DNA of 64,000 bases, taken from NCBI RefSeq assembly GCF_003790525.1, contig NZ_CP033635.1; one strand, written 5' to 3'. This document shows positions 53,201 through 56,200 of the stretch, in pieces. Position 1 is the first letter of the stretch, and each line of letters opens with the position of its first letter. The position numbers were made by a program. This DNA comes from Escherichia coli (lineage in GTDB: Bacteria; Pseudomonadota; Gammaproteobacteria; Enterobacterales; Enterobacteriaceae).

Positions 53201-56200
53201 CTGCGGAACAATTTTGTCTGGCGAGGTTACGGACAATCACCTGAACCTTTTCCTGTTCGCATCGCCAGGCCTGCTCAATAATTTTCGCCGCCCATGCTGG
53301 AATATGCGGCGATAAACGGTAATGAACCCACTTTCCTTGCTTGCGGTCCAGCAATAGCCCACTTTCACGCAGTAATGCCAGATGGCGGGAGATCTTGGGC
53401 TGCGACTGATCGAGGGCAGTGCAGAGATCGCAGACGCATAACTCTCCCAGCTCGCTGAGCAGTAAAACGATGCCCAAACGGGTTTCATCGGCAAGAATTT
53501 TGAAGAGTTGGATGGGTAACAGAAATGACATATTGCGCTCCTGATTGTTGCACTTAGTGTCTCTCTTCGAAGCGGATAAGTCAAAAACATATATGGTTTA
53601 ACGAATTCGTATGTGCAGAGGAAGGTAATAGGTGTGAATTTTGAGTTGGGTATTCATTTGAAAGGAGGTCTGAATCAGGACATAAAAAACCGACTTTGCG
53701 TCGGTTTTTTACTCTTCAGCCTGAGTTGGTGGCTCTGGCTGGAGTGAGAGAGCTCTTATCTAACGGTTCAATACTATTAGCCAGTGACTAACATTGCAAG
53801 AATTAGCGATTTCTTCAGCTGGCGGAGGGACAGTTTGCTATACATGGTGGTGAAAGAGGATTGATATACTTTCATCGGGTCGCTGCCGTACCAAGCCTTG
53901 TCCGAATCCGGATGTAAAAAAACCGACTTTGCGTCGGTTTTTTACTTTCCAGCCCTGAGTTGGTGGCTCTGGCTGGAGTGAGAATGCCATCATCTAACGC
54001 ATCAATGCTAATACCATACTGAAACTATTGCAAGGACATGCTGGTTTTATAACCTGAATATACTGTATGATTATCCAGTTAGCTCTGAGGCATTTTCACT
54101 CTGGCAATGCGCATAAACGCTTTCAAAGTCCTGATCAGTGGTACGGGTGGTGCCGTTAACTGATGCTCTGGCCGGAGTGAGAATGCCATTATCTAACAAT
54201 AGGGCATGCGCCGTGACAGGCAATGGATGAGTAAGCGGATGCATTCTCACTCCATCGTATGGAGAACACGGGTGATTGATAAAGCAATCATCGTTCTTGG
54301 GGCGTTAATTGCGCTGCTGGAACTGATCCGCTTTCTGCTTCAGCTTCTGAACTGGTAGCGGAAACGTAGCTAAGGGCTAAGAGCACACTACTCTTAGCCC
54401 TTTAACATTTAACGCATGGTCACGAACTCTTCTGCCGCCGTCGGGTGAATGGCGACGGTATTATCGAAGTCTTTTTTGGTTGCGCCCATCTTCAGTGCCA
54501 CCGCGAAGCCCTGCAACATTTCGTCCATACCAAAACCAATGCCGTGAATTCCGACAATCTTCTCTTCCGGTCCAACGCATACCAGTTTCATGCGGCACGG
54601 CTGGCGGTGAGTGGTGACGGCGGTATACATCGCGGTGAAAGAGGATTTATACACTTTCACCTGATCGTCGCCGTACTGCTCGCGTGCCTGCGGTTCCGTT
54701 AAACCAACAGTCCCAATCGGCGGATGGCTGAAGACCACGGTCGGAATGTTGCTGTAATCCAGATGCTCATCCGGCTTGTTATTAAACAGGCGTTCAGAGA
54801 GACGGCGACCCGCAGCAACTGCCACCGGTGTCAGTTCCACTGCACCCGTGTTATCGCCCACCGCGTAAATACCTTCAACGTTGGTATTTTGATATTTATC
54901 GACGACGATATAGCCTTTTTCGTTGGTTTTTACACCAGCGGCTTCCAGGTTGATGTTGTCATTGGCAGGCTCGCGACCAATCGCCCAAATCAGGCAATCC
55001 ACCGTTTCACTGCGCCCATCTTCCAGCTCCAGCGTCAGGCTACCATCAGCATTTTTCACTACTGCTTTCGGGATGGCGTTGGTGTGCAACTGCGGGCCTT
55101 CGGCGTTCATCACTTCGACCAGCGTTTCAGAGATCATCGGGTCGAAGCTGCGCAGCGGCGCATGTTTACGCACAAACAGATGCGTTTTCGCGCCGAGGCC
55201 GTTAATCACGCCCGCCAGTTCCACGGCGATGTAACCTGCGCCAACAACCGCCACGCGCTCTGGCAAAGCAGGAAGGGCGAAGAAACCATCGGAATCAATA
55301 CCGTATTCCACGCCTGGAATATCCGGGTGGCTCGGACGACCACCGGTGGCGATCAGAATATGATCGGCCGTGATGGTTTCGCCGTTGACTTCAATGGTTT
55401 TGGCATCAACGAAGCGGGCAAAGCCTTTGATTACATCAACGTTATTTTTACCGAGCACGTTCTCATAGGAAGTATGAATACGGTCGATATAGGCGGTACG
55501 GCTGGCGATCAACGTTTCCCAGTTGAACTTATTGATGGTGGTATCGAAACCATAATCCGGGCCGTACATGTGGATCGCTTCACGGATTTGCGCCGCGTGC
55601 CACATCACTTTTTTCGGCACACAGCCAACATTTACGCAGGTGCCGCCCAGCTCTTTGGCTTCAATCAGTGCGCATTTCTGGCCGTACATAGCCGCGCGGT
55701 TGATGGAGGCGATACCGCCGCTGCCGCCGCCGATGGCGATGTAATCATAGTGTTTAGTCATGACATATTGTCCTTATCGTTGATTACCGCGATTGTAGCG
55801 CGAGACGTAATAGGTGCCAGCAATGGCTGCAATTACTCTGGCACGATCCAGCTTACGGTGGCGTGCCCGGTGCCTGCTGGAACCAGTTTGCTGTGCAGCC
55901 ACGGCAGCACGTTATTCATCTGCTGTTCCAGCTTCCACGGCGGGTTAATCACAATCATGCCGGAAGCGGTCATGCCACGGCGATCGCTGTCTGGCAGCAC
56001 CGCCAGTTCAATTTGCAGAATTTTGCGAATGCCGGTCGCTTCCAGGTCGTGGATCATGCGCTTAATTTGCTGGCGCAGCACCACTGGATACCACAATGCG
56101 TAAGTGCCAGTGGCGAAACGTTTGTAACCTTCTGCTATCCCGCTGACCACCGCCTGATAGTCGGTTTTCATTTCATACGGCGGGTCGATAAGGATTAAAC

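Follow-up and report, generated by a model that had tools for sequence, protein, structure and literature searches.

The closest described relative of the locus considered here is the dinQ/agrA/agrB locus of Escherichia coli K-12, in which small RNAs (sRNAs) act on the mRNA of a toxic peptide (Weel-Sneve 2013, PMC3567139; Kristiansen 2016, PMC5066626). The orthologous locus lies in a 64,000-nt stretch of E. coli DNA (RefSeq assembly GCF_003790525.1, contig NZ_CP033635.1), the whole of which is referred to as the window and provides all positions given below. It has the position, gene order, strands and LexA box of the K-12 locus, and differs from it in which of the two sRNAs best matches the dinQ mRNA.

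In K-12, the primary transcript of dinQ is not translated, since its nt 1–28 are base-paired to nt 94–120 and the Shine-Dalgarno (SD) sequence sits inside a hairpin formed by elements 3 and 4 (3:4). Loss of 43 nt leads to pairing of element 2 (G94–G106) with element 3 (U167–U178), which exposes the SD. AgrB binds dinQ at G88–A119, re-closes the SD hairpin and makes an RNase III substrate. The complementarity to dinQ is 30/31 for AgrB and 25/31 for AgrA (PMC3567139, PMC5066626). AgrA neither alters the SD structure nor inhibits translation in vitro (PMC5066626), and only the well-matched sRNA counters toxicity (PMC3567139) and inhibits translation (PMC5066626). AgrA and AgrB each lower full-length dinQ transcript levels (PMC3567139). 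Published work holds that agrA “has partly degenerated” (PMC3567139).

There are parallels with other type I systems. The tisB/istR-1 pair is likewise LexA-controlled, its primary mRNA is inert until 5′ processing, and a divergent, non-overlapping sRNA pairs in the 5′ untranslated region (UTR) and triggers RNase III cleavage (PMC5066626). It differs in being unrelated in sequence, in having a single antisense RNA without a paralogue, and in using a standby-ribosome mechanism instead of an SD-hairpin switch. In the zorO-orzO/zorP-orzP and Ibs/Sib systems, type I modules are duplicated in tandem, a few pairing nucleotides decide which sRNA partners which toxin, and each sRNA has its own toxin gene. 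By contrast, the dinQ locus combines two sRNA paralogues with one toxin gene, and the paralogue that matches varies by strain. The dql (dinQ-like) genes of Enterobacteriaceae have the 5′UTR core GGAGTGAGA…ATCTAAC in common with dinQ (PMC5066626). This core was found in Serratia, Pantoea and Citrobacter contigs. The dql genes lie in other genomic contexts rather than between arsR and gor, and encode different peptides.

Identity of the locus

Over window positions 53500–54450, the sequence has 100% identity to the E. coli SMS-3-5 chromosome (NC_010498.1) and to about 30 other genomes, and some match to this interval is present in 5,422 of 5,426 complete E. coli genomes. The RefSeq annotation of SMS-3-5 places an 87-nt dinQ coding sequence between arsR and gorA, equivalent to window 54272–54358. 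The order in K-12 MG1655 is gor – dinQ(−) – agrA(+) – agrB(+) – arsR, and the window carries the same locus between the same neighbours in the opposite orientation. The Rfam AgrB model RF02891 (gathering score 40) has two full-length minus-strand matches in the spacer (Table 1), which places both sRNA genes upstream of dinQ, on the opposite strand and without overlap. The dinQ peptide scores 53.9 bits against the NCBIfam toxin_DinQ equivalog NF041472 (cut-off 30 bits), which places it in the DinQ family of small hydrophobic toxins with a single transmembrane segment, and the putative LexA operator CTGTATGATTATCCAG at 54063–54078 is identical to that of K-12.

Because of the identity to SMS-3-5, the K-12 gene order, the Rfam and equivalog matches and the K-12-identical LexA box, the arsR–gor spacer is, on sequence grounds, the characterised SOS-regulated type I toxin–antitoxin locus dinQ/agrA/agrB, a system that was already known and is annotated in RefSeq. 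Toxicity of the peptide, expression of the sRNAs and repression by them would hold in the window strain by extension from the K-12 experiments. The same evidence bears out the identification made in an initial annotation of the window, which had also proposed a 28-codon hydrophobic DinQ-like peptide next to gor, now seen as a GTG-initiated open reading frame (ORF) at 54272–54358 that is a RefSeq coding sequence, and antisense agr sRNAs in the other two repeat units, both of which match the Rfam model. That annotation had further assumed the K-12 order of agrA and agrB, with the caveat that the sequence itself does not show which copy is which. Alignment of the promoter-side and terminator-side flanks to K-12 agrees with this order: unit 1, proximal to arsR, is the positional agrB, and unit 2, in the middle, is the positional agrA. 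The caveat was nonetheless well placed, as complementarity to dinQ is reversed relative to K-12.

Complementarity of the two sRNAs to dinQ

Most of the difference between agrA and agrB in K-12 resides in the 8 nt that follow GGAGTGAGA, and the distribution of this block among the repeat copies differs in the window (Table 1). The 5′ ends of the sRNAs are complementary over ~31 nt to the dinQ 5′UTR at nt 88–119. The dinQ core matches the middle copy at 31 of 33 nt, with two mismatches of which one is a G·U wobble, and the proximal copy at 28 of 33 nt, with five mismatches and no wobble. The calculated energies of the duplexes with window dinQ are −59.5 kcal/mol for the middle sRNA and −47.1 kcal/mol for the proximal sRNA, while the corresponding values with K-12 dinQ are −44.1 kcal/mol for the middle copy (agrA) and −59.6 kcal/mol for the proximal copy (agrB). 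The K-12 pattern of a near-perfect proximal copy and a mismatched middle copy is reversed in the window, though the positional orthology is the same. In other words, window dinQ carries the block ATGCCATT rather than GAGTTCTT, so that its best-matched sRNA is the copy at the agrA position.

The middle copy is taken to be the cognate partner because the complementarity that distinguishes active AgrB from inactive AgrA in K-12 favours the middle copy when the same comparison is applied to the window. By analogy with K-12, it is probable that the locus works as it does there, with the middle sRNA at the agrA position serving as the dinQ antitoxin in the window strain. Under this proposal, LexA would repress dinQ, and the mRNA starting at +1 (54078) would be locked by the long 5′ stem between nt 1–28 and 94–120 and left untranslated. 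Removal of the first 43 nt would permit element 2 (54171–54183) to pair with element 3 (54244–54255), freeing the SD for synthesis of the 28-residue membrane peptide. A constitutive sRNA of ~84 nt, made from one of the upstream repeat copies on the other strand, would pair through its 5′ 33 nt with dinQ nt 88–120, re-close the SD hairpin and create an RNase III substrate. The 8-nt variable block within the repeat would set the specificity of this pairing, with the middle sRNA (53914–53997) as the effective antitoxin and the proximal sRNA as a weak or spare copy, the reverse of the arrangement in K-12.

The variable block also lies within the structural switch of the dinQ leader. The predicted minimum free energy (MFE) structure of the +1 form joins nt 1–28 to nt 94–120, with stem S1 continuous across 12–28/94–110; its energy is −81.8 kcal/mol, compared with −74.3 kcal/mol in K-12. 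In the +44 form, the MFE structure contains a 13-bp stem S2 at 97–109/164–176, which corresponds to the inverted repeat 54174–54186/54241–54253. These predictions reproduce the published stems S1 and S2 and suggest that the window leader can form the mutually exclusive pairings 1:2, 2:3 and 3:4. The window block lengthens both stems: AUGCC (54183–54187) pairs perfectly with GGCAU at dinQ nt 12–16 (54089–54093), extending S1, and the block also pairs perfectly with GCAU at nt 164–167 (54241–54244), extending S2. The GGCAU and GCAU partner sequences are conserved in K-12, though the K-12 block pairs poorly with them.

Variation across E. coli and other Escherichia

The frequency of the alleles was assessed with 44-mers chosen so that every 28-nt seed spans the variable block. 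Queries of 476 nt did not separate the haplotypes cleanly enough to count them, as their identity bands ran together (755 and 589 genomes at ≥99%). Exact matches to the window-type dinQ 44-mer are present in 1,912 of the 5,426 complete E. coli genomes (about 35%), and to the K-12-type 44-mer in 1,677. For sRNA copies with middle-type flanks, the 44-mer with the ATGCCATC block is exact in 639 genomes and that with the ATGCCATT block in 1,669 (ATGCCAT(C/T) blocks).

Seventeen E. coli loci from the complete-genome collection, spread over the similarity ranking (L003–L019), were tabulated. The sampled loci contain at least eight block alleles: GAGTTCTT, GAGCTCTT, ATGCCATT/C, ATGCCCAC, TAGCCATC, TAGTCGTC/TAGTCATC, TAGCCCAC and ATACCATT. 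In K-12, a BL21-type locus, L003, L006, L018 and L019, dinQ matches the proximal copy. It matches the middle copy in the window, L004 (O157:H7), L005, L007, L008, L009 and L010, and the leftover differences between dinQ and the middle copy in L009 and L010 are G·U-compatible. Duplexes with the copy that does not match are typically weaker by 7–17 kcal/mol. In none of 11 distinct two-copy haplotypes does dinQ have more than one non-wobble block mismatch to its better copy, and these mismatches sum to 1 over all 11; shuffling gave a mean sum of 15.1, and a sum as low in 16 of 20,000 shuffles.

To survey outgroups, one genome per species was scanned for exact patterns. A lone sRNA copy, with flanks of the middle type and a match to dinQ, is present in E. 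albertii, in Escherichia sp. E1V33 and in one divergent E. coli. Three units occur in E69, where dinQ matches the middle copy, and in E. whittamii, where the two sRNA copies are nearly tied (−59.0 kcal/mol for the middle copy versus −58.5 kcal/mol for the proximal copy). A recent partner switch in the window strain was considered and rejected, since in the outgroups the partner of dinQ is the adjacent copy. E. coli-type agr/dinQ sequence is also present in contigs labelled as Acinetobacter haemolyticus (424 nt) and as a Lachnospiraceae metagenome-assembled genome (L021, L023); these are most likely the result of contamination or mis-binning and were not used as taxonomic evidence.

We lean, by a modest degree, towards a history in which the antitoxin paralogue is not fixed in Escherichia and the 8-nt block has moved between the three direct repeats, for which gene conversion is the simplest mechanism, with dinQ always remaining matched to one sRNA copy. 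In this history the copy adjacent to dinQ is the usual and probably the ancestral partner, as predicted for the window strain, about a third of sequenced E. coli, E. albertii and Escherichia sp. E1V33. The K-12 state is derived, by conversion of the dinQ block to the agrB type; K-12 is taken as derived on the strength of the adjacent-copy pairing in the outgroup species. No description of an allele switch between partner copies was found in the literature on dinQ gene conversion or polymorphism. T1TAdb picks the more stable of two candidate antisense RNAs and notes no more than that.

The partner prediction is a side result on a known, K-12-characterised system, with consequences for nomenclature. 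K-12 names applied by gene order, with agrB as the antitoxin and agrA as inactive, probably mislabel the antitoxin in the window strain and in roughly one third of E. coli. If the K-12 state is derived, the textbook account of agrA as a decayed duplicate would be valid only for K-12-like lineages. If the prediction is borne out, the locus would offer a compact, natural case in which exchange among short direct repeats keeps a toxin mRNA matched to its trans-acting antisense RNA.

Repeat architecture, copy-number change and origin

The initial annotation had described the locus as a tandem triplication of a ~235-bp unit ending at 54358. The conserved segment on which this was based, CTCTGGC(T/C)GGAGTGAGA, does occur in all three units: the window contains exactly three occurrences (53733, 53967 and 54166), all of them on the plus strand, against a chance expectation of 0.01. 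The three 33-nt core copies are 85–94% identical, at spacings of 234 and 199 nt. The long homology is confined to two units and to ~135 nt, 234 nt being the spacing rather than the unit length. In a sensitive self-comparison, unit 1 (53668–53800) and unit 2 (53900–54034) are 82.5% identical over 137 columns (E 5e-29), while homology of unit 2 to the dinQ region is limited to 47 nt (53952–53998 versus 54152–54197; E 1.5e-7). Tandem Repeats Finder reported nothing at the locus. There are only two long copies and these are too diverged, so “tandem triplication” was dropped as a description. The architecture is a duplicated ~135-bp sRNA gene plus a third, 33–47-nt copy of the core inside the dinQ leader. 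Likewise, the ccgac-tttgc-gtcgg hairpin had been assigned to every unit, but it occurs only twice, at 53686–53708 and 53919–53941. The dinQ transcript would instead end at a different hairpin (54372–54402), which is common to the convergent dinQ and gor genes and is unlike the agr hairpins. The locus extends to about 54405.

The number of agr copies varies between strains. Four of the sampled E. coli loci (L011–L014) have a single agr copy; they are about 232 bp shorter, and the surviving copy has middle-type flanks. Single-copy loci account for 8 of 60 rows in an evenly spaced genome listing. In UPEC_U013 (L015) and the ST131 strain 751 (L016), exactly 199 bp are deleted between the middle repeat and the dinQ repeat (positions ~391–423 of the L015 and L016 loci, corresponding to window 53999–54197). 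Lost with them are the promoters of the sRNA and of dinQ, the LexA boxes and the initial ~87 nt of the dinQ mRNA, and the two repeats are fused. This deletion is present in 9 of the 60 rows of the same listing. The same direct repeats generate both copy-number loss and a promoter-deleting fusion in ST131-type strains. In the genomes with the 199-bp deletion (ST131/B2-type), RefSeq still annotates dinQ, and the neighbouring gene is arsC, not arsR.

A 53-nt gor-like pseudogene fragment lies between the two sRNA units and retains the remnant reading frame KVYQSSFTTMY. In E. albertii, a related and longer remnant of the gor 3′ (stop) end lies to the left of the single sRNA copy (L020, reverse complement 1096–1125). 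Together, the two remnants suggest that an agr–dinQ–gor′ segment was duplicated in tandem long ago and that its upstream toxin copy was deleted later.

Alternative explanations

Several points weigh against the middle sRNA as the sole antitoxin in the window strain. While the anatomy, homology, complementarity and predicted folds can be read from the DNA, transcription, toxicity and the identity of the repressing sRNA are carried over by analogy, as all function for this strain is transferred from K-12. The proximal copy complements GGAGTGAGA without a break, together with most of element 2, and has a single A·C mismatch in its left half; K-12 AgrA carries two left-half mismatches, more than the window proximal copy, and the proximal copy may bind better than the analogy with AgrA suggests. 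Duplex energies leave aside target accessibility and kinetics. Allele linkage across the 5,426 genomes is deduced from counts and 24 sampled loci, and the shuffle test ignores the shared ancestry of the haplotypes. Both K-12 sRNAs lower full-length dinQ transcript levels (PMC3567139), such that their roles are not all-or-none.

One alternative is that the K-12 rule applies unchanged, with the arsR-proximal AgrB orthologue (53681–53763) as the antitoxin and the middle AgrA orthologue as a degenerate bystander. The proximal copy is positionally orthologous to K-12 agrB, its promoter and terminator are intact, it is complementary to dinQ at 28 of 33 nt, including nearly all of element 2, and the literature attributes antitoxin function to AgrB only (PMC3567139, PMC5066626). 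Nevertheless, its variable block has four non-wobble mismatches to window dinQ, it forms a duplex 12 kcal/mol less stable than the middle copy does, a 1-nt deletion lowers its Rfam score and shortens its internal stem, and a comparable mismatch load abolishes AgrA activity in K-12 (PMC5066626); we regard this explanation as unlikely. Action of both sRNAs on dinQ, either redundantly or with divided roles (e.g., both on the +1 form and the better-matched one on the +44 form), is also improbable, albeit a more serious contender; under it, no one sRNA would count as the antitoxin. In K-12, AgrA and AgrB both reduce full-length dinQ RNA (PMC3567139), and both window copies look expressible and have in common the 17-nt CTCTGGC(T/C)GGAGTGAGA core and the ATCTAAC end. 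Against it, toxicity is counteracted and translation inhibited in K-12 by the well-matched sRNA only (PMC3567139, PMC5066626), and many E. coli strains, as well as E. albertii, get by with one copy. We give almost no credence to the repeats being inert intergenic debris, with the small ORF unexpressed and no working toxin–antitoxin system in the window strain. The locus is dispensable, as some ST131/B2 lineages have the 199-bp deletion that removes both promoters, and consensus scans did not flag the promoters and terminators. On the other hand, the LexA box, SD, GTG start, ORF, sRNA promoters and terminators are intact and near-identical to those of the characterised K-12 locus, and across lineages dinQ changes in step with one sRNA copy, which speaks for selection on the pairing.

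Features of the locus

Table 1. Coordinates of the elements between and including arsR and gor in the window.
Feature	Position	Strand	Remarks
arsR	53178–53531	−	Flanks the spacer holding the dinQ/agrAB locus
arsR-proximal sRNA gene	53681–53763	−	agrB orthologue by position; Rfam 85.4 bits; flanks align to K-12 agrB
Terminator hairpin, arsR-proximal sRNA	53684–53710	−	Predicted fold
Proximal-copy block	53750–53757		Window GAGCTCTT; K-12 GAGTTCTT
Putative promoter, arsR-proximal sRNA	53771–53799	−	−10 TAGTAT 53771–53776; 17-nt spacer; −35 TTGCAA 53794–53799
gor-like pseudogene fragment	53839–53891	−	53 nt, between sRNA units; 83% to gor 54624–54676, E 4e-10
Middle sRNA gene	53914–53997	−	agrA orthologue by position; Rfam 108.1 bits; flanks align to K-12 agrA
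Terminator hairpin, middle sRNA	53917–53944	−	
Middle-copy block	53984–53991		Window ATGCCATC; K-12 TAGCCATC
Putative promoter, middle sRNA	54005–54033	−	−10 TAGCAT 54005–54010; 17-nt spacer; −35 TTGCAA 54028–54033
Putative LexA operator overlapping dinQ promoter	54061–54080	+	TACTGTATGATTATCCAGTT; CTGT-N9-CAG match 54063–54078; assignment from PMC3567139
dinQ primary transcript (putative)	54078–54405	+	Alignment to K-12 +1 transcript
dinQ leader element 1	54093–54105	+	Numbering from PMC5066626
dinQ +44 processing site	54121	+	
sRNA target in dinQ leader	54165–54196	+	Contains element 2, 54171–54183
dinQ variable “specificity block” (8 nt)	54183–54190	+	Window ATGCCATT; K-12 GAGTTCTT
dinQ leader element 3	54244–54255	+	
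dinQ SD	54261–54264	+	GGAG
dinQ coding sequence	54272–54358	+	GTG start; 28 residues, MIDKAIIVLGALIALLELIRFLLQLLNW; TAG stop 54356–54358; RefSeq WP_077250934.1
dinQ terminator hairpin	54372–54402		AAGGGCTAAGAG-N7-CTCTTAGCCCTT; identical in K-12; assignment from PMC3567139
gor	54409–55761	−	Convergent with dinQ; other flank of the spacer

The sRNA promoters, the terminators and the four-element 5′UTR switch are shared with K-12. The start sites of the K-12 agr sRNAs were mapped by primer extension (PMC3567139), and the putative window starts are at 53763 for the proximal sRNA and 53997 for the middle sRNA. The proximal promoter has the same hexamers and spacing as the sequence upstream of K-12 agrB, and the middle promoter is identical to that upstream of K-12 agrA. 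A consensus promoter and terminator scan left the agr promoters below threshold (8 of 12 positions matched) and, because the T tract is taken up into the stem, overlooked the A-run/T-run hairpins as well; promoters and terminators were assigned from identity to the K-12 elements and from the Rfam structural alignment.

Both sRNAs are predicted to fold with a free 5′ end of ~20 nt, an internal stem-loop and a terminator (z-scores −5.0 and −5.4). In the proximal sRNA, with its single-stranded 5′ seed and terminator hairpin, the predicted internal stem-loop (53711–53731) differs from K-12 by a 1-nt deletion and substitutions, CTCA-GGCTGAAGAG in the window versus CTCAGGGCTGGAAAG. The shorter stem goes with an Rfam score of 85 bits, versus 108 bits for the middle copy, and this would fit relaxed constraint on a non-cognate copy.

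The dinQ start at 54078 is likewise placed by identity to K-12. DinQ is identical to the K-12 peptide at 27 of 28 residues and is one residue longer: the K-12 TGA stop is replaced by TGG, which adds a C-terminal Trp, and the next codon is TAG (54353–54358 for the two codons). The TGA-to-TGG change was seen in none of the 17 other E. coli loci. A weaker second LexA operator region lies upstream (54052–54062), where two bases differ, with CTGAATATAC in the window and CTGCATGTAC in K-12. Antisense to the dinQ leader, an ORF of 57–59 residues (54071–54250, minus strand; 731–904 in L008) is annotated as a “hypothetical protein” in some RefSeq genomes, and is probably a spurious call over the dinQ 5′UTR.

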